Assembly (NCBI RefSeq): GCF_037042905.1
Contig: NC_087251.1
Span: 62,001-126,000 of the forward strand
From: Lytechinus pictus
Taxonomy: Eukaryota
Length of the DNA: 64,000 nucleotides
Reading direction: 5' to 3'
Part shown: one piece after another, positions 40,625 to 62,840 of the stretch
Numbering within the stretch: position 1 is the stretch's first letter
Layout of the letters: each line of letters opens with the position of its first letter
Position numbers and translations under genes: made by a program
Notes under the pieces: model-generated
Databases searched by the model: none
Told to the model about the DNA's origin: nothing
What the model saw: the letters and a program-made list of their open reading frames with translations, nothing else

Positions 40625-42121
40625 TCACCTGGCTCAGATGATATTTCTCCTAGAATTGTAAAAGATTGTATTCATGTTATTGCAGATCCACTTTGTGACA
40701 TATTCAATAAATCATTGTTTCAAGGGGTAGTTCCCAACAAAATGAAAATAGCAAAAGTGGTTCCAGTATACAAAAAGAATGATCGAAAATGCATTGAGAA
40801 TTATAGACCCATTGCACTGTTGCCAATATTCTCAAAGATTCTAGAGAAAATAGTTTAGAAAAGATTGAATGACTTTTTGAACACCTTTGAAATTTTGATA
40901 CCCCAGCAATTTGGATTCCGTAAAAATTGTTCAACTAGCATGGGTGTTCTAAATTTGGTAAATACAATAGTTACTTCAATTGATGATGGGAAGTATTGCC
41001 TTGGAATATTTTTAGACTTGTCAAAAGCATTTGACACAATTGACCACGATATACTCCTAAGCAAACTTGAATATTACGGCGTTCGAGGTATAGCCTTAAG
41101 TTGGTTTAGAAGTTACCTAGAAAATAGACTACAATTTGTGTATATTAATGGCGCCAAATCACAATTAAGTAATGTAAACTATGGTGTACCACAGGGATCT
41201 GTCCTTGGCCCATTGTTGTTTTTGATTTACATTAATGATATCATCAATTCGTCTCAATTATTTACCTATTCTCTTTTTGCTGACGATACATGTTTATTAT
41301 ATTCTCACAAGAATATTCACACTCTTATGCAGTCAGTTAATTCTGAAATTTGTAAACTCTATGCATGGTTTTTTAGTAACAAACTGTTATTAAATACAGG
41401 TAAAACACAATGTGTATTTTTTAGATCCAGAGGGAGGGTAATCCCTGATGATGTTCATCACTTAATTATTGGCAATGAACAGATCAATTGCAGTCAACAT
41501 GTGCAATTTCTAGGTGTTACGGTTGATGAATATGTATCTTGGAAAAACCACCTTGATAATGTATGTACTAAAGTTTCTCGTTGTGTTGGAGTGATATCCA
41601 AACTTCGTTATTTCCTCCCCCAGCAGACCCTTGTTACTTTATATAATGCTATTGTCATGCCCCATTTGACGTACTGTAATGTTGCTTGGGGGCACACATA
41701 TAAGACTCATATACATAAATTGCAAGTTTTTCAAAGAAAAATTGTTAGATACATAACATATTCGGATTATAGGTCGCCAAGCACTCCTTTGTTTTTACAA
41801 CTGCAAATTTTACCTTTTGATGAATTGGTATCTCTTAACTGTGTCACATTTATGTTTAAGTGTCAATCACGCCAGAATGCATTTTTGTCTCATGTGTTTG
41901 TGGAAAATTCTTCCATCCATCATTATCATACTCGTCAAAGAAACCTTCTCCATCAGCCATTAGCCAGAACCCAAACTGCTTTGAATTCATTTAGAATAGT
42001 TTGTGTTAAAGAATGGAATAAGTTACCTCATGACGTTAGAAATAGCTTGGCTCTGTCCCGATTTAAAACATTGTGTAAAAAGCATCTCTTCGATAGATTG
42101 CGGTCGGATGTGAATGTATAA
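40625..42121 (+). pseudogene. Reverse transcriptase part of ORF2, with one premature TAG at 40856-40858
   Basis: ORFs 40613-40858 and 40865-42121 are in the same frame. Motifs: NYRPIALLPIFSKILEK, QFGFR, DLSKAFDTIDH, GVPQGSVLGPLLFLIYIND, FADD. Confidence 0.93.
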
Positions 42122-51160: not shown

Positions 51161-53072
51161 GACTGTGTTCTTTTTTCTTTATTGAAGTAAATCTGATTTT
51201 TCTTTATTCATACTCCATTTCGATTAATACATAGAACAATCAGGTTTACCGACAATAAGGTTACATTTAAAGCACTTACAGTGCAAACGGAGGCTTGCGT
51301 ATAATTTTTCATGTAAATTGCATTTCAGCCCAAAACAAAACATGCGTGTATTCTGCATGGTAATAATAATAAAAATAATATTAAAAAAAAAAGTGATCTG
51401 TGATTCATTTGTAAAGTTTTGCCACATCAAGATAATTACTTTGCTATTCGTAGGCTGTGCAGATCAGATATATTTGCACCTTCTTTAGGATTTAGGCCCT
51501 ATAGGTAACCCGCCTTAGGGCCTATAATGCCTTCTTTATAATCATAAACCAACTTTTTATTGTTTTATACGTCCTGGGCAAACGCAGGAACACAATATAC
51601 ATTTATATTCCGTTGATAATTCACGTAAATAACATTTAAAAAAAAGCCCAATCTCACTTTTGAATTTTTTGTTGGCCTTGTATGACATACTGTCAACCCA
51701 TTTCATTGAGAATTCAGGAATCACCTGGACATAAATACGTAAATGTTGTTCTCATTTTAAAACGACACATGCCTTCAAACCATTCAACTTGTGTAGTGGC
51801 TTTCCCCATACTGGAGATAGTCATTTCAAATTGGGATTGATATTGTCTATTATGTTGGATGTTCTTTCATCAATACATGCTCAGTGCCTTTCGGGTCTTC
51901 TTTCTCATTTGCATTTCTCGCCTAAATTTCCTATCCTAACCAGGCAAACACTTCAACGAATTGTTTTCATCTTTTTTATTGATGCAAAAATTCTTTATTC
52001 TTCGCTTCACCTACGTTGCTTTGAATCAGTTTTGCCGACAATCAGGTTAAAGTCAAAGCATGTATGGGCCTATGCAAATGAGAATAATATTCTCATTTGC
52101 ATAGGCCCATACATATTATGTTTCCTATTTTCAAGATTCAATCAAAACAAGTATTTAAAATAAAACATGTCTTCTTTTTAGCTTGCATGTTCAGCATCCC
52201 AAGGTTTAGTCATTCAAATGATATCGTTTTACCATTGTTACACATTCTATATGCTATAATCATAATGACATATTTCATATATTTGCTTTATGTATGTCCA
52301 AATTTATGGTTTATGAACGCCACTGGAATGATGCTTGATAATAGGTCCATGATTCAAACTAGTTACGCGTTAGAAGCGCTGTTTGGAGCTTTGAGCGCTT
52401 TGTTCGGGTGTGTCGCTCTGGCAACAGTTGTTCCGACTTTTGAATAGTCTAAAAAAAAAACAATTTGTTTAAAGTTTGGTTAAATTGGTTTGAGCAATGG
52501 TTGTTGGAATGGCGGCCTGAGCGACGTGCTTGGGGTTTGAATGGCGTTTTTTTCTTTTTGTTTGCGGTGTACATATTTATCCTATCTACGGTATTTCCGG
52601 GTAATTGCCATACCGGCAATTGAACCCCTTATCTTTGAACAATAACATTGTCTAATTTATTGTGATGGAAAAAATACATGCAATTTTATTTGATCTATTG
52701 TTCGTTCAGTTTGCTGAGTGTACACAAAACCATGTGCAGCTGTACTATGTATATACATTCAATTCTTTTTCAAGGCAATGTTGCCCATTTTGTTGAGGGT
52801 AATAGAATCCCACGAACATTATGTTTTATCTTAACATAATTATTTGCAAACAGCTATTTTACCTTTTTTCCTCCTTCTCCCCCCCCCCCCAATTTTTTTT
52901 GTAGCAAATGTCACAAAATACAGGTTGCCACTAGCCTTGAGTATGTCAGACCGTCACGCGTGAACACACCCTTATACACTCAACGCAAAACACATGCACC
53001 CCTCCTAGCACCTTGCACGCACCGAGCACTCCCAATCGTACTGCAAACCAAAATGTACCTCATTTGGATGAC

Positions 53073-56015
53073 ATGTTTAATGATGAAGTATTTGCCCCCC
53101 AGAGCAAATATTACACTGCTAAAGAATTTATTTCAGCTTTTAATACTAAAAATCGAAACGATAAACCAAATCACTTTAGCTTAATGCACATAAACATTCG
53201 AAGCTTACAAAAGAACTTTGAAACTTTCAGTGAATTCTTAAATATATTGAATAAATTTCCATTCTCTATTATAGGTATGACCGAGACGTGGTTACACTCA
53301 ACAACCCCTCCCATATTCGAAATTGATAATTATACATTTAACCATATAGATCGTAAACAAGGTAAGGGAGGTGGGGTCGCTTTTTATATTCACAATGATA
53401 TGCATTATAAAATAAGGGACGATATTCAACTTGACGGGTTAGAAACTTTATTCATAGAAATTATCGATGATAAACATAAAAATAAAATAGTCGGTGTAAT
53501 ATATAGGCCACCAAACAGCGTTGTTGATATATTTCTAGATAGATTAGAATTATGTCTCGAAACTGTATCTCGTGAAAATAAGGACATCTACATCATGGGC
53601 GATTTTAATATAGATCTCTCAATACCTTATACTGCCCTCGGCCAACACATGATCACTTTGATGTCATCATTTTCTTTTAAACCTCTCATTGATAAACCTA
53701 CGAGGATAACAAATGCGACACATACAATTATTGACAATATTTTTACAAATGTATTTAATACCAATAATAATGGAATAATATATTATGATATCTCTGATCA
53801 TTTACCTATTTTCACGATATGTTCAAGCACCTATCGCTTACATAAACAATGCAACACAGAACACACTACTCGACGAAAAGAGACCAAGCGCAACATAGAT
53901 TCCCTAAAAACAGATCTGTTTACAGAAACATGGCAAGATGTTTATCAAGAGCAGGATGTTAACAATTCATATGAAATATTCATAAACAAACTTCTTCATT
54001 ATTACAACAAAAACGTACCTTTGACAAAAATAACTTCAAACAAAAAGAAGAATAAACAACCATGGATCACTCAAGGAATAATTAAATCTATATTTACTCG
54101 CAATAGATTGTATAAGATATCACTTAAATCACCTACAATAGAACATCAAAATAAATACAAAAAATATCGTAATAAATTAACATCTGTAATCCGTTTAGCA
54201 CGAAAATCTTACTTCTCAGACAAAATTGAAAACAATAAAGACAATAACAAAACTTTATGGCATACAATAAATGACATTCTAGGTAAGAAAAAAGATGATC
54301 GAGACAATGATGAATTTTTAGAAAATGGTGACCACATCAGAGACCCCAGTGTTATTGCAAACGCATTCAATTCATTTTTTACTAATGTTGGTCCAAACCT
54401 AGCTTCGAAAATTGTTACCAATGACCATGATTTTTCACAATATTTAGATAACCATAACGAACACTCCTTATTTTTCAACCCTACTAATATTCAGGAAATG
54501 TTAGAAATTGTTCGATCCTTAAAACCCAGCAAATCCAGTGGCCATGATGGGATAAGTGTATATCTACTTAAACAAATAATTTTTTTCCTGGCTTCTCCAC
54601 TTGTACATATTTTCAATCTGTCTCTCTCTCAAGGTGTTTTTCCTGAATCGCTAAAACTTGCCAAAATTATTCCAATATATAAAAAAGATGACCCATGTCG
54701 GATTGTAAACTACCGCCCTATTTCACTGTTACCAAGCATTTCCAAAATACTTGAAAAAATTGTTTACAATCGTTTATACTCATTTTTGGACACTAACAAA
54801 TTATTAATCCCCAATCAATATGGTTTCAGAAAAAACCATTCAACCGATTATGCAATTTTACAATTATATGATAAAATAACTGATTCACTTTCAAAAAAGG
54901 AGCACACTATTGGGGTTTTTATGGATTTATCGAAGGCGTTCGATACAATGGACCATCGCATATTACTGAGTAAACTAAAGACATATGGAATCAGAGGGAT
55001 CGTACTATCTTGGTTTAAAGATTATTTAGCTAATAGACGCCAATATGTTAATTTTAAATCCAAATCATCTAATATATGCCCCGTAATATGTGGAGTACCA
55101 CAGGGTTCAATCCTGGGACCTTTATTATTTTTAATATATATGAACGACATTGTGAACACATCACCCTTACTTACATATGTTTTATTCGCAGATGACACCA
55201 ACATATTTTATTCACACCACAACTTAAACATACTTGTTGCAACTCTCAATCAAGAATTAAAGAAATTATCAATATGGTTTAAATCAAACAAACTTTCACT
55301 TAACATAGATAAAACAAATTTCATGTACTTCAAACACATTAATTCTAAACATATATTTCGCGATAATATTTATATCAATGATATACCCATTAATGAAAAA
55401 CAAGAAACTAAATTTTTAGGTGTAGTGATCGATGCTAACATAACTTGGAGTAGTCACATTCGTAATATAAGCATGATGGCAGGAAGAGGCATAGGCATTT
55501 TGTATAAATTAAAATATTATATCTCTCAAAGATCGTTACTTATGCTCTATAACTCATTTATCTTATCGTATATATCTTATTGTAATATTGTATGGGGAAA
55601 TAGTAACAAAATCAAAATCGATTCAATATTGCGCCTTCAAAAGAAAGCACTTCGCATTTGTCATCACTCCCATTATCTCGCTCATACTGATCCTATATTT
55701 CATGATTTTAAAACATTGAAGATCTACGATATTCACACTTATCAAACTGCTATTTTTATGTACAAATTTTCCACCAACACTATACCAACACCCTTTCGAA
55801 ATATTTTTGTCTATAATAGAGACATTCATTCATACCCTACTCGACATTCATCTGACTTTCATTTAACAAACCCAAAACTAATAATTGCTCACAAAACAAT
55901 ACGGCATCACGGCCCGGATGTTTGGAACAACCTTCCGAATGATATCAAACAAGCTGCATCTCTTATATCATTTAAAGCTTCACTAAAGAGGTACCTTTTA
56001 TCTAAATACTTATAA
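53073..56015 (+). CDS. LINE ORF2p: apurinic-like endonuclease + reverse transcriptase (980 aa from the first ATG; frame open from 52941)
   Basis: Endonuclease motifs HINIRSL, ETWL, YRPP, GDFN, IDNIF and SDH. RT motifs NYRPISLL, QYGFR, DLSKAFDT, GVPQGSILGP and FADD. No stops. Confidence 0.97.
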   Translation: MFNDEVFAPQSKYYTAKEFISAFNTKNRNDKPNHFSLMHINIRSLQKNFETFSEFLNILNKFPFSIIGMTETWLHSTTPPIFEIDNYTFNHIDRKQGKGGGVAFYIHNDMHYKIRDDIQLDGLETLFIEIIDDKHKNKIVGVIYRPPNSVVDIFLDRLELCLETVSRENKDIYIMGDFNIDLSIPYTALGQHMITLMSSFSFKPLIDKPTRITNATHTIIDNIFTNVFNTNNNGIIYYDISDHLPIFTICSSTYRLHKQCNTEHTTRRKETKRNIDSLKTDLFTETWQDVYQEQDVNNSYEIFINKLLHYYNKNVPLTKITSNKKKNKQPWITQGIIKSIFTRNRLYKISLKSPTIEHQNKYKKYRNKLTSVIRLARKSYFSDKIENNKDNNKTLWHTINDILGKKKDDRDNDEFLENGDHIRDPSVIANAFNSFFTNVGPNLASKIVTNDHDFSQYLDNHNEHSLFFNPTNIQEMLEIVRSLKPSKSSGHDGISVYLLKQIIFFLASPLVHIFNLSLSQGVFPESLKLAKIIPIYKKDDPCRIVNYRPISLLPSISKILEKIVYNRLYSFLDTNKLLIPNQYGFRKNHSTDYAILQLYDKITDSLSKKEHTIGVFMDLSKAFDTMDHRILLSKLKTYGIRGIVLSWFKDYLANRRQYVNFKSKSSNICPVICGVPQGSILGPLLFLIYMNDIVNTSPLLTYVLFADDTNIFYSHHNLNILVATLNQELKKLSIWFKSNKLSLNIDKTNFMYFKHINSKHIFRDNIYINDIPINEKQETKFLGVVIDANITWSSHIRNISMMAGRGIGILYKLKYYISQRSLLMLYNSFILSYISYCNIVWGNSNKIKIDSILRLQKKALRICHHSHYLAHTDPIFHDFKTLKIYDIHTYQTAIFMYKFSTNTIPTPFRNIFVYNRDIHSYPTRHSSDFHLTNPKLIIAHKTIRHHGPDVWNNLPNDIKQAASLISFKASLKRYLLSKYL

Positions 56016-56930: not shown

Positions 56931-56969
56931 TATATATATATATATTGTTCTCTTCATCCATTTCCTTCA

Positions 56970-57060
<91 letters not shown>
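56931..57060. repeat. (TA)n/(TG)n microsatellite containing a 22-bp relic of the adjacent element
   Basis: Simple repeats. TGTTCTCTTCATCCATTTC at 56946 matches the sequence at ~57633. Confidence 0.9.
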
Positions 57061-57061
<1 letters not shown>

Positions 57062-57208
57062 AAAGTTATACATGTACAACAGCTATTGGCAACTCTTTTT
57101 ATTTAAATATTGTAAAGAAATGGATGAAGAGAACAAAGGTAGGCGTAGCTTAAATCAAGGTTCCCCAGAGCTATCTACCCTTTGGAAAAATTGGTGATGC
57201 CGAAAAAA

Positions 57209-57280
57209 TGTCTCTGCCGGGAATCGAACCCGGGCCCCCAGCTTTGAACGCCGGTGCCTTAACCACTAGACCACAGAGAC
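57209..57280 (-). tRNA. tRNA-like gene with UCA anticodon (tRNA-Glu-like D and T arms; not tRNA-Sec architecture)
   Basis: GTCTCTG TG GTCT AGTGGTTA AGGC A CCGGC GTTCAAA GCTGG GGGC CCGGG TTCGATT CCCGG CAGAGAC A, then TTTTTT. All four stems pair. G32 is atypical. Confidence 0.8.
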
Positions 57281-57895
57281 GGGTTAGTGGCTAGGGCGAC
57301 CCCGATCCGTTTGACCGTCAGATAGACAAATTTTCGACACCATGCCAATTATAATTTCCTTTGTCGGGTGAAGGTGGGTTTTTAACAATGACAAGCCGCC
57401 ATGCCTCAGCTGGATCAAAGCTATTGCTTCGATACAGTACACGTATGGGCGAAGAAATACAAATGTGTAAAGTTATACATGTACAACAGCTATTGGCAAC
57501 TCTTTTTTATTTAAATATTGTAAAGAAATGGATGAAGAGAACAAAGGTAGGCAGAGACATTTTTTCGGCATCACCAATTTTTCCAAAGGGTAGATAGCTC
57601 TGGGGAACCTTGATTTAAGCTACGCCTACCTTTGTTCTCTTCATCCATTTCTTTACAATATTTAAATAAAAAAGAGTTGCCAATAGCTGTTGTACATGTA
57701 TAACTTTACACATTTGTATTTCTTCGCCCATACGTGTACTGTATCGAAGCAATAGCTTTGATCCAGCTGAGGCATGGCGGCTTGTCATTGTTAAAAACCC
57801 ACCTTCACCCGACAAAGGAAATTATAATTGGCATGGTGTCGAAAATCTGTCTATCTGACGGTCAAACGGATCGGGGTCGCCCTAGCCACTAACCC

Positions 57896-57966
57896 GTCTC
57901 TGTGGTCTAGTGGTTAAGGCACCGGCGTTCAAAGCTGGGGCCCGGGTTCGATTCCCGGCAGAGACA
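57896..57966 (+). tRNA. Second copy of the UCA-anticodon tRNA-like gene
   Basis: Same sequence with one G fewer in the variable region, followed by TTTTTT. Confidence 0.75.
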
Positions 57967-58031
57967 TTTTTTCGGCATCACCAATTTTTCCAAAGGGTAG
58001 ATAGCTCTGGGGAACCTTGATTTAAGCTACG

Positions 58032-58083
<52 letters not shown>

Positions 58084-58094
58084 CTGTATATATG

Positions 58095-58768
58095 TATTTG
58101 AGATCAAGAGTATGGGAGGGCTGTAGCAAGGTCAATTCCAGTATTCATCAAGCTTTCGGGCACATGCCCTTCATCAGGATCTAAACCTATATAAAATACA
58201 AAATAAATAGACCTACTAATAACAATGATAAATATAATACAATGCAATATATAACGGAGATAAGTAATTACAGTCCATAAGTAATAACCAATTATTCATA
58301 TAAGGTAATGGTGAGTCAATATGTAACGAAGTATAGAATATATAGTTACCGTAAGGTCCGTAAGTATAGTGTATTGTTGACAGTAAAGTTAAGTGTAAAG
58401 TGAGGTCAGGTGTGCGGGGATGAGTTCATTAGAGGGTGAAGAGGGTCGTTTATTGGTCGGCGTTTATACCACGTGGTCTTATTAATGTTTTGAGTTTGTG
58501 TATCCAATGAGATTCCCTTTTCATGATGGTGTCGTGTTTCTTGTTTTTTACTATTTCGATGGCAGTGATTTTAATGTTGTGTACTGTATGGCCGGGAAGT
58601 TTTGAAATGTATGGTGTATGGGAGGGTTTTGCTGTTGGGTTTGTTTTTGTTGTAATTGGTTACTTCTGATCTAGTGTTATTTAGTCGTGTGTATAGTGTT
58701 GTTTCAGTCTTTCCGACGTATTGCATGTTGCATTTAATGCATGTTAGGAGGTAGATGACCCATGAGGA
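58095..58768 (-). mobile_element. 5'-truncated Penelope-like element (GIY-YIG C-terminus + 3' region) between TA tracts
   Basis: VIYLLTCIKCNMQYVGKTETTLYTRLNN..HF, then after frameshifts LPGHTVHNIKITAIE..RESHWIHKLKTL..PRGINADQ* (stop at 58450-58452). The CxxC in the motif is Neptune-like. Confidence 0.88.
58147..58180 (-). ncRNA. Minimal type I hammerhead ribozyme in the PLE 3' region
   Basis: ATC-CTGATGA-A-GGGC-ATGT-GCCC-GAAA-GC-TT-GAT, with a palindromic AAGCTT stem III as in dimeric PLE hammerheads. Confidence 0.75.
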
Positions 58769-60927
58769 TATATATATATATATATATATATACACTGCAT
58801 ACAATTAGTGAGTGTGGGGTTTTTCGCAATAATGAATTGCAAACGTCTAGATCTAGACTATAGGTGGATGTCTGTATGACCTGATTCGCATCAATCTAGC
58901 AACACTGATCACCCATCCAGGGGCTCCATCAGGTCCACCATCCAACATGACAACTCCAATCTGTGTATGAGAGCCTTTCAACACGATTCCCGGATTAGAT
59001 ACTCTCAAATCAATCATTCTCAATTGGGATATAATCAGGGATATCTTCCCTGGTTCTATTCAAAGTTGTAAAGATCGTGTTTCTCCACCATGGCACCGTG
59101 AATGAATTTATCACGGTTTAATTAATGCGCGCCCATAACGACTCAGTAATATATTCAAATAATGAATTAAGATCCCTCTTCTGAGCTTATGGTAGCAAGT
59201 TACTCCATTAACCTGTTTAACATGAAAAATAAATTAACCGTTTTAAAGACTCTATGTTTCTTTTTCAGGTAAGAAAATGGGGAAGCATTTAAGTAGGCTG
59301 GAACAAATTTTATTTGAAAGGGATATTCACTTGAACTATATGAAAAAAATAAAACCCCAATTTTCCCTACCTCGATGTGATAATGCCCCTACTGCAAGTC
59401 TAGAAGACTAAGGCAAACGCACTTTAATGACACATATGCCTTACTTAACAGTGGAGATATGAGATTTTTAGGGGCCAGATATGGTATCGGACAAGAGAGC
59501 AAAGTGAGCGAGAGGAGAGATTTTATTTATTAAGAAAATAACGTCATATTTCACCCTTCGTTCTTTCCTCTATTTTTCCTTTTCTCTTTTTTTTCTTGGT
59601 AGTGAAAAATTTAGGGGGAAGTGCCCTGAAGAACCCCCCCCCCCCCTCATCTGTACGCCATTGCAACTTATTGCCCTACTTGTGGGGTTTGGGAGGGGTC
59701 CTATTTTTTTTTTTTTACAAAGTTGGGATACAGTGAATTTATTCGAATCATTGCAGGCCTATTGTACACACCATGATGATAGCTTTAATAGCATTAAAAC
59801 ATCAGCCCAAAATGACCTTTAACTAGACAAAATTGAATCTATTTCCTAATTTATCAATAATTATATGCTTTTCACACTGCATTTCCTTAATAGTCCGGCA
59901 GCCCAGGAGATTTATTCAAACGAAAGCCTGACAAGCAAATGACCCCATAGCTGGATGACATGGACCCTTAAGTTTATAAAAATGCATTGCTGCCGGGTTT
60001 CATCCGTGATCTTCCCGCCGAAATGACGTAATATATGACGTCACTACAAAATGGCCCTATTTCACAATTTTTTAGACATTCTACACATAGCATGAAGTCA
60101 AGGGAATATATCTCAACCAAACCATGTTTTTTTGTATGAAATTTTCAAAATATATTGTTCAAGTAGTGCAAAAGAAACATGCAAAATTTCACGAACAGAA
60201 ATTATTGTTTACATATGCAGATTATGTCATGAAATTTGCATATCATTAGTTTGGAAGATTTCTTGCTTCAAAAATTGTCGAAAATCGATTCAGAAATGTA
60301 TTTTCTTTCTTAGTGTACTTTCTTTGATATATTTCCTGTCAAGCATGATATCGTTCTTTTTATCTATATCTCTACTTTTAGAAAATATATGTCAGTAATT
60401 GAAAATGACATTATAGACTGTGATTTCAGCCCCCTTTTCAATATGGTGCGTACATAGAAATCGTGCGTTTTGGGCCTATTTTCACCATATAGCTGAGGTG
60501 TGCTTACGATATGCCTACGTTATGGATGTTTCCTGCATTTTGCATGATATTAAATCTTCCAAACAACATATTTTCATCTTCATTATGTCTCTGCTAATAA
60601 ATTAAGGATTTCAGCAAAGATTGATTGCCCACTGGGCAGTCTATAGGCTACGTTTTCAGCCTAGTTTTCAACAACGAACCTATACCATGTATGACTGCAT
60701 TATTGTAGTCGTGTCGGAAATGGAAGTTCCTGTGCACTATCATAATATATTTTTAATCAACGTTTTTGTATTGCCTGAAGTGTCTAGTTAATGAATCTTG
60801 ATGTTCCCTTTGCAAAATCGTGTCCCACGGGGTTCAAAATTGATATCTTTGGCGGCCCTCTTGGATTTTTAAAATGAAAATTCATTATTTTCATATTTTT
60901 TTGCACAGAGTGTGACAATGGGACAAT

Positions 60928-62840
60928 CCCGACCTTTCGTTGGACAACGCGAACGCTTATTTGCGACGGTAGTTGATTTTGGAAGATACTTTTCGGCCCG
61001 TCGTCATTGTCGTAAAACTCTGTCCTGCAATGCAAATTGTGTGACATGATATTTTTTTTCGTTTCACATCTGGAACGGAAACATTCAATCTGCGTTTCGT
61101 GTGCAAAATTCTGGTTGCTACTATGGAAACAGCGATATATCCGATTTAGGACGACTTTCCAAAGCCACATTTGGTTCCTCCCAGAGCTCGAGAGGCCGCC
61201 CGGGGGGCCCACTTCCATTGAAGAGTGGATACCAGGCGCGACCACGCGTAAAAAGGGAAAGAGTGGGCAAGTACGTTACGTATAGGCCTATGTAACGTTA
61301 TAAGGGTGTCAAAAACGATGTTTAAAATACCAAAAAGGAAGATATGTTTTCAATACTTGTAGGGTTTTACAAGCTAAATACTTGTTAAGAGATGCATTTT
61401 CATAATCTGGAAAAGCCTTGCTTCCCTTGTTTAGGGTGCTTTTCGAAACTGCATGGTCGTGCCTGGTATCCACTCATCAATGGAAGTGGTCCCCCCGGAA
61501 ATTCAAATCTAATCCCCATTTCTGGGAAAAGTAAAACATAATGCCCATTACATTATGTGCTAGAGGCATATCGTTTGTGTAGGAGTAAACAAAATAAATT
61601 CTGGCTGGTACGTGTTCAGACCAAGGTAACTCCTTGTTTAGACGTATACATGCTGTGTACATAATCAACGCATGCGAAATGGTTTCGCTGGAGAGGTGAT
61701 TTGACCCATGGAATCAATTGCCAGCAGGCGCGTAGCCAGGGGGGCGGTGGGGGCGGTGCCCCCCCCCCCCCCCAAACGTCCCCAAAAAGAAAAAAAAAGG
61801 GAAAAAAGAGAGGAGAAAAGGGAAGGGAGGAAAGGGAAGAAAGGTAGCTTTGTCGGGTTTTTTTTTCTTTTCATTCTTTATTTTTTTCCTCAAAAGAGAA
61901 ACTCCTTCACTCTTGCTCTGAATTTATATATGAATTTTGCTCCCGCGCCGCGCGCGGTTAATGACAATATTGAAGTTCTCCATTGTTTCCCCCACCCTTT
62001 CTCTAACCCTGTTTTTTCACCTCAGCTATATGTGTTTCTTGCCAGTTAAAGTTCAAATGTATACATTAGGGCATGGAATTAGAGTAAGGTTAGGCTGAAG
62101 TATATGAAGTTATCTTTTTTTTAATTGATCGCGCAACTTCTGGTCGGGTCGGCTCCGGGCGGGTAAAATCTTTATATCAATTTCTGCCGTTACCTCCATA
62201 AAGTCAACTTCTCCCGCTTTTCAGCTCATTACTAAACAACCATAATTTTGGGGCAAACGGGTTCCTAATTTAAAAAGAGGAATGTATCAAATTCGTGTCG
62301 TATTAAATAAAAAAGTACAATATATTTTTATCAAATTCTATTAATCTTCATGTCATTTCCCTGCACATTCATCTCCTGTCCTGTTTTGCGCCCTCAGTTT
62401 GAAATTTTGAATGACACTTAGGTTTCTTTATAATTCCAAATGAAGCGCTTCAGGATAAGTCAAAGAAATTAGGCATCCTTTTTTATATCATTTCAATAAA
62501 TCACAGAAGTTTCAACTTTTTGCGCACTACTTTCCTTGTAATGAAGTTCAATAATCTTAGGAAATCAATTGAATTAGCCATCCAGCCATCAGTCGTAATG
62601 TACATGCATGTGTGGTGCGGGTGTCGCGGGAAAGAATTTTGCACACGAAAAGCAGATCTGTAGGGCCTGTAACCCCCCTGTAACACAAAGCTTAGCATTG
62701 ATTGTAGAGCAGTTTTCTACGTTTGATTCTATTGACTATAATGTACAATCAATCTTAAAAATCAAGTGTATGATTAAGCATTAACTTTTGTGTTAGGGGA
62801 CCCTAATATTAGCGTCCGTGAGGATTGCGAAAGGTCCCAA
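60928..62840 (+). mobile_element. Composite repeat, copy 3, with a secondary insertion
   Basis: CCCGACCTTTCG ... CGAAAGGTCCCAA; collinear with copy 1 except for 61725-62580. Confidence 0.9.
61725..62580 (+). mobile_element. One-ended hAT-like insertion with an adjacent host deletion
   Basis: Starts CAGGCGCGTAGCCAGGGGGG..poly-C. It replaces the host segment corresponding to ~14503-14675 of copy 1. Confidence 0.6.

Follow-up and report, generated by a model that had tools for sequence, protein, structure and literature searches.

A tRNA-shaped module with a UCA anticodon and a selected fold in a probable Penelope-like repeat family of Lytechinus pictus that lacks a hammerhead

The window analysed here (64,000 nt of contig NC_087251.1 of Lytechinus pictus, positions 62,001 to 126,000 of the forward strand) contains a tRNA-shaped module which ARAGORN identifies as a 72-nt tRNA with anticodon TCA on the minus strand (57209-57280; Table 1), and which scores 60.9 bits with the Rfam model RF00005 (gathering score 29). 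All 21 stem pairs of its 7/4/5/5 cloverleaf form, two of them as G-U, while the anticodon loop reads G32-U33-U34-C35-A36-A37-A38 and the variable region comprises 4 nt. The complete 72-nt cloverleaf with a UCA anticodon and a T6 terminator, as described in the initial annotation, is thus confirmed. Eukaryotic tRNA-Sec has a 9/4 acceptor/T fold and a long variable arm; the module is rightly separated from it, as its fold is 7/5 and its variable region has only 4 nt. A second copy, absent from the initial annotation, lies on the plus strand (57896-57966), and both modules are part of a single insertion between (TA)n/(TG)n tracts, in which copies of a 408-nt tandem unit are inverted head to head.

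Table 1. Features of the insertion and its surroundings (window coordinates; PLE, Penelope-like element)
Feature	Position	Strand	Remarks
tRNA-shaped module	57209..57280	-	72 nt, 7/4/5/5, A and B boxes, discriminator A73
Anticodon hairpin	57238..57254	-	Anticodon TCA at 57245-57247; sole arm kept in the predicted long-RNA fold
T6 run, Pol III terminator-like	57203..57208	-	Directly after the discriminator; family B has one too
Leader, imperfectly antisense to D arm, T arm, acceptor 3' strand and T run	57281..57359	-	Anticodon arm skipped
Predicted rod, about 265 nt, monomer positions 51-317	57140..57406	-	z about -7
12-nt motif, also between hammerhead and short 3' end in several Neptune-type PLE families	57140..57151	-	
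Insertion, left arm, 1.2 units	57057..57552	-	3' end (monomer 401) abuts (TG)n/(TA)n
Insertion, right arm, 1.2 units, 5'-truncated, head to head with left arm	57550..58035	+	3' end (monomer 317) abuts (TA)n
Second tRNA-shaped module, variable region one base (G) short, 71 nt	57896..57966	+	ARAGORN, Rfam
(TA)n/(TG)n target tract, left	56973..57060	.	
(TA)n target tract, right	58034..58083	.	

The window also contains a 38-nt stub of the unit's 3' end within the left microsatellite (56945-56982), and a minus-strand Penelope-like remnant (58085-58770) in the same (TA)n tract as the insertion, which possesses a minimal hammerhead core (58154-58177) and belongs to the family of L081 and L090. Two LINE frames are present on the plus strand, one of 1,024 aa that encodes both an endonuclease and a reverse transcriptase domain (52941-56015) and one of 420 aa with a reverse transcriptase (40859-42121), together with a MITE-like pair of 48-nt inverted repeats at a spacing of 203 nt (61200-61498).

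In the 812-Mb assembly, exact anchors from the D and T arms give 1,871 matches and flank anchors give 914 matches for this repeat family (family A); a DNA search with the 72-nt module alone returned no matches, because the words of the module are too common. Insertion ends were mapped at 63 fetched loci, picked as full-length or exact-arm copies and including a few duplicates. Two classes of 3' ends about 50 nt apart account for 58 of 70 (27 at monomer positions 349-357 and 31 at 401-408), nearly all of which join (TA)n or (CA)n. The 71 5' ends are scattered from monomer position 18 to 385, many of them at head-to-head (inverted) junctions. Only three lie at the tRNA start (179-182), two of these being one duplicated event, and insertion ends do not coincide with the tRNA boundaries. 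Nine of the 71 5' ends fall within 18 nt of the T arm, but this cluster was not used, as it is no stronger than another at 308-333. Partial tandems, 5' truncation, inverted 5' copies, a tail at only some ends and a microsatellite target are all seen in the 408-nt unit, which also occurs in homogeneous long arrays of at least 43 copies (G000:C2:8866029-8883119) and about 21 copies (G000:C4:26000165-26008733). At L086:1094-2350, the 3' end of a 5'-truncated unit is fused directly to a 5'-truncated Neptune-type element, by either a template switch or a nested insertion.

Penelope-like elements (PLEs) share this insertion structure, and a short end and a tail have been described for them (PMC8557442). 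Host PLE families with a C-terminal GIY-YIG endonuclease (Neptune-type) contain the same short end and tail; they show 45-57 nt and PMC8557442 gives 30-40 nt, compared with about 50 nt between the two end classes of the unit. In an anchored alignment of the unit's 3' region with seven PLE ends, the L079 family is the best match: of 28 comparisons, two give p 0.0005 and 0.002 and the remaining 26 have p >= 0.06; the likeness is short, and the unanchored comparison with the L079 end is not significant (p 0.13). The shared 3' motif follows a hammerhead core 199 times, versus 15 for the control. The 408-nt unit itself contains no match to the hammerhead core on either strand and no Rfam ribozyme at E <= 10. 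A search for the unit's exact motif behind a hammerhead gave a single, chance-like match. By its insertion pattern and 3' motif the 408-nt unit is probably a non-autonomous PLE, and the initial placing of the tRNA inside a mobile unit is upheld. Having a PLE-type mobility pattern and no hammerhead, it works like a retrozyme without possessing the feature that defines one.

A control search for position-37 variants revealed an older family, B, from which three copies were fetched. The tRNAs of families A and B differ at 10 of 72 positions, all by transitions and without any indel, and keep 21 of 21 pairs, three of which (2-71, 6-67 and 28-42) have undergone two-sided compensatory changes. Simulated random placement of 10 transitions gives such pair retention in 0.17% of trials (p 0.0017). 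The flanks are about 70% identical (about 30% different) with many indels, and the tRNA is less diverged than they are (Fisher p 0.016, from a single B copy, the decay of which raises the apparent flank divergence). As all pairs are kept through compensatory changes despite the diverged flanks, the fold is selected, as had been proposed from the window copy. G1-C72, A73, G32, U33 and UCA are unchanged between the families, and position 37 stays a purine. Inserted copies decay about evenly, at 1.4% in the tRNA versus 1.8-2.5% in the flanks of 36 independent loci (30 of the 63 fetched loci had been picked on exact D and T arms), which indicates that selection acts on the source elements. A search for a third family with a pyrimidine at position 32 gave five matches, all of them family-A mutants. 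Earlier simulations that started from a Gly or a Glu parent (0 and 2 of 200,000, respectively) assume a parent that need not be the right one, and are superseded by the comparison of A with B.

The anticodon reads TCA in 95 of the first 100 listed of the 914 family-A copies (counted by eye) and in six of six family-B copies found without use of the anticodon arm, while 21 pairs, U33 and TCA are all intact at 24 of 36 independent loci (insertions not scored). The keeping of UCA across families is compatible with chance, as three bases stay unchanged with P 0.36-0.51 at 20-29% neutral divergence. Arrays on two chromosomes have received copies of a U33A variant (6 of the first 100 listed family-A copies). 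Genome-wide, position-36 variants comprise 13 C, 3 T and 0 G (n=16), so that transversions, which make the anticodon TCC (Gly), are in excess, and position-37 variants comprise 11 G and 5 T (n=16). An ancestral TCC subfamily was rejected as the source of the position-36 excess, as family B has A36. G32 is atypical in a tRNA anticodon loop. The accessible part of PMC10275265 contains nothing on G32.

The D loop and T arm of the module match host tRNA-Glu, so this part of the initially noted Glu likeness stands, but Glu is only one of several possible parents. Six host tRNAs share 43-51 matches each with family A and no single parent stands out, whereas Arg-CCT and Gly-TCC tie at 53 matches for family B, of which 23 of the first 26 bases match Arg-CCT and the T arm matches Gly and Glu. 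A further comparison took in seven host tRNA genes and two repeats. The module is likely a mosaic or derives from a parent outside the sample. A register shift from a Glu anticodon was set aside, as it is weakened by the anticodon stem of family B. In eukaryotes and archaea, the Trp determinants include A73, G1-C72, C35 and A36, and in human the major one is A73 (PMC9976931). Against the sets in the tables of that paper, family A contains all four of these Trp residues and lacks C34, while C36, C2-G71 and G3-C70 of the Gly set are missing. For Arg it lacks A20, having U20 instead, where the host Arg tRNAs seen carry A20. This Arg determinant is present in four family-A copies (G000:C3:42160614, C11:34850150, C12:7162011 and C21:1152576), which would be better candidates for charging.

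As a long RNA, the monomer is predicted to fold into a rod of about 265 nt (z -6.7, versus -3.7 for the opposite strand), and its circular fold has z -7.0; 65% of the 408 nt are predicted to be paired. The antisense score of the leader was reached by 0 of 1000 shuffled leaders. In the monomer, pair probabilities are 0.0 for the acceptor, D and T arms and 0.99-1.0 for the anticodon stem, and the acceptor stem returns (0.94-1.0) when the leader is removed from the fold. The leader of family B is antisense to its own tRNA and skips the same anticodon arm; in both families the leader rod is thus predicted to mask all but the anticodon hairpin. The test for selection on the rod is not significant (eight G-U-type versus six A-C-type mismatches, p 0.40), and part of the rod may therefore be left over from an inverted insertion of old date.

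A link to a Naiad partner containing UGA codons, suggested initially, has no support from the inspected PLE loci, which are of the C-terminal-endonuclease (Neptune) type and in which TGA is sporadic. Of 122 matches of one reverse transcriptase family, 13 contain a TGA; of 150 scored endonuclease matches (from 468 candidates), 8 contain a TGA and 12 a TAA. Stop-free frames of 896-1,026 aa exist in Neptune-type families, the longest in one copy of the candidate partner family and those of 896-954 aa in the others; with an open frame of 1,026 aa, the candidate partner needs no UGA read-through. No autonomous family with a conserved in-frame TGA was found among the Neptune-type families examined, and the GIY-YIG copy L091, which has a TGA and a long frame, was rejected as a decayed Neptune-type copy whose sister L075 has Cys at that position. 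Selenoprotein Naiads are described from clams and spiders with SECIS elements, and echinoderms are not among the eight phyla given for Naiads in the accessible text of PMC8557442. As they use SECIS elements, such Naiads would need tRNA-Sec rather than a suppressor.

The reading we moderately favour is that a cis-acting, tRNA-shaped Pol III cassette or processing signal replaces the hammerhead, is silenced in multimers and carries the UCA anticodon as a passenger. It builds on the observed insertion pattern, the shared 3' motif, the lack of a hammerhead core and the selection on the cloverleaf. The unit would be a non-autonomous, retrozyme-like element, copied into (TA)n tracts by the enzyme of a Neptune-type family, in which the cassette occupies the place held by the hammerhead in those families. 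The cassette may serve the element in cis by binding Pol III factors and, at the 5' end of a transcript, may fold as a pre-tRNA recognised by host RNase P, RNase Z and CCA enzyme. In multi-unit transcripts, the antisense leader would mask the internal cloverleafs, and the masked RNA could escape cutting and be reverse-transcribed. The anticodon was probably fixed before families A and B split, and the atypical G32, the U20 in place of the host Arg A20 and a partner with no need of UGA read-through count for its being a passenger. This reading has two weak points. The T6 run behind the discriminator should stop Pol III, which leaves the source of multi-unit RNA unexplained, unless Pol III read-through or Pol II transcription is assumed. 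The acceptor stem, required of a real tRNA but not of a promoter alone, contains two of the three compensations. These two points keep a charged opal suppressor under consideration. The insertion ends away from the tRNA boundaries, the unanchored L079 comparison and the non-significant test on the rod also count against this reading.

According to that alternative, which is unlikely, the module would be a working, element-borne opal suppressor tRNA, made as a short Pol III transcript, charged, and kept for its effect in trans on the helper or the host. Charging by Trp would be most plausible, with Gly or Arg possible, and the leader would keep the tRNA inactive in long transcripts. The module contains the features of a nonsense suppressor (intact cloverleaf, U33, stop anticodon and purine 37), and its gene anatomy is complete, terminator included. 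The acceptor-stem compensations, the G1-C72, A73, U33-UCA and purine 37 kept in both families, the TCA counts in A and B with 24 of 36 loci intact, and the four Trp determinants (PMC9976931) are likewise in its favour. Against it stand the chance-level retention of TCA, the missing C34 (Trp), A20 (Arg) and C36, C2-G71 and G3-C70 (Gly) in family A, the lack of a client at the TGA frequencies given above and the spread of the U33A variant into arrays. The atypical G32 counts against it as well, and a host with some two thousand active copies would probably suffer from them. Equally doubtful is an extension of this idea, in which a domesticated chimeric tRNA gene is a self-regulated opal suppressor in about two thousand copies, set free solely from short Pol III transcripts and masked by its leader in replication intermediates, so that element activity would tune UGA read-through and compete with selenocysteine insertion.

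Replication as a rod-shaped circular RNA is unlikely as well. Here a host anticodon or tRNA-splicing nuclease would cut the exposed hairpin and RtcB-type ligation would close the circle, the hairpin replacing the hammerhead and the loop sequence being kept for the nuclease rather than for decoding. In retrozymes the RNA is circular and extensively self-paired, with RtcB closing the circle (PMC7229834), and the predicted rod exposing only the anticodon hairpin in both families, the z of the circular fold and the multi-unit insertions, with arrays of more than 40 units, are consistent with such a cycle. However, it leaves the acceptor-stem compensation unexplained, as that stem is not paired as such in the rod, insertion ends do not cluster in the anticodon loop, and one jump of the template at the hairpin base would be enough to account for the gap in the leader.

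A tRNA-derived SINE has a 5' tRNA head that is read through into the body, with no terminator after the head. An ordinary satellite or such a SINE, with the tRNA as a neutral relic and UCA as an accident, is very unlikely: despite the long head-to-tail arrays, the similar decay inside and outside the tRNA and the precedents of Sm-alpha (PMC2770079) and Helenus (PMC10886601) for thousands of false tRNA calls, the copies are dispersed, 5'-truncated and inverted with fixed 3' ends, the T6 run directly follows A73 in a module internal to the unit with only 3 of 71 5' ends near its start, and the compensated stems without an indel between A and B largely refute a neutral relic.

Among known systems, the closest are the non-LTR retrozymes of animals, non-autonomous Penelope-like derivatives (PMC7229834; bioRxiv 10.64898/2026.07.22.740005), which share with the unit tandem units of 170-400 nt in dimers to long arrays, low GC, highly self-paired RNA and kinship to PLE pseudo-LTRs. 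Unlike them, the unit contains no type I hammerhead and has a tRNA-shaped cassette and terminator upstream of a PLE-type 3' end. The non-autonomous PLE Chlamys MRC1 is similar in that it forms partial tandems, is truncated and has inverted copies at the 5' side, bears a tail at only one end, targets microsatellites and resembles autonomous families in its 3' end, whereas the partner of the unit appears to be Neptune-type and a tRNA module is unmentioned for Chlamys elements in the accessible text of PMC8557442. Selenoprotein Naiads resemble the unit in (TA)n targeting and PLE insertion structure (PMC8557442). Helenus/TRIMp3 is also a non-autonomous retroelement with a tRNA-like sequence that inflates tRNA counts, every predicted tRNA-Sup-CTA gene of two rust genera deriving from Helenus (PMC10886601). 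It is however an LTR element with a primer-binding site and target duplication, while the unit is tandem, with truncations, variable 5' ends, inversions and (TA)n targets in place of two LTRs around an internal part with a target duplication. Schistosoma Sm-alpha is likewise a tRNA-derived, high-copy, SINE-like repeat with thousands of tRNA calls, but it contains a hammerhead and a sense anticodon (Gln), and neither a compensated cloverleaf nor a masking leader is mentioned in the accessible text of PMC2770079. In the open-access literature, we found no hammerhead-less PLE dependant with a compensated tRNA and a masking leader; the sister family B with its compensated cloverleaf is new here.

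Read cautiously, the unit is a Penelope-dependent element with a selected tRNA fold in the place of the hammerhead, a fold that the leader is predicted to switch off, and it bears on the question of the role of the hammerhead in PLEs and retrozymes. The family accounts for roughly two thousand spurious predictions of tRNA-Sec or suppressor genes in the Lytechinus pictus genome. Should its RNA be charged, an animal transposon would encode a natural opal suppressor, of which no example was found in the open-access literature.

Among sequencing contigs, four of run X12 have a loose end with an A run after the A-rich tail region (window 57673), and four have a loose, adaptor-like end near the tRNA start (window 57894). 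Contigs of a second organism contain an identical module at low depth and were thus not counted as independent. The D and T arm pattern has no match in prokaryote or viral contigs. Eleven metagenome matches (L092-L102) were rejected, as they represent a different, unrelated SINE-like repeat without a cloverleaf, which has in common with the module only the B box and the A box with the five bases that follow it. Another repeat (L105 and L106) contains the same D loop with a Glu-like anticodon loop and a broken cloverleaf.
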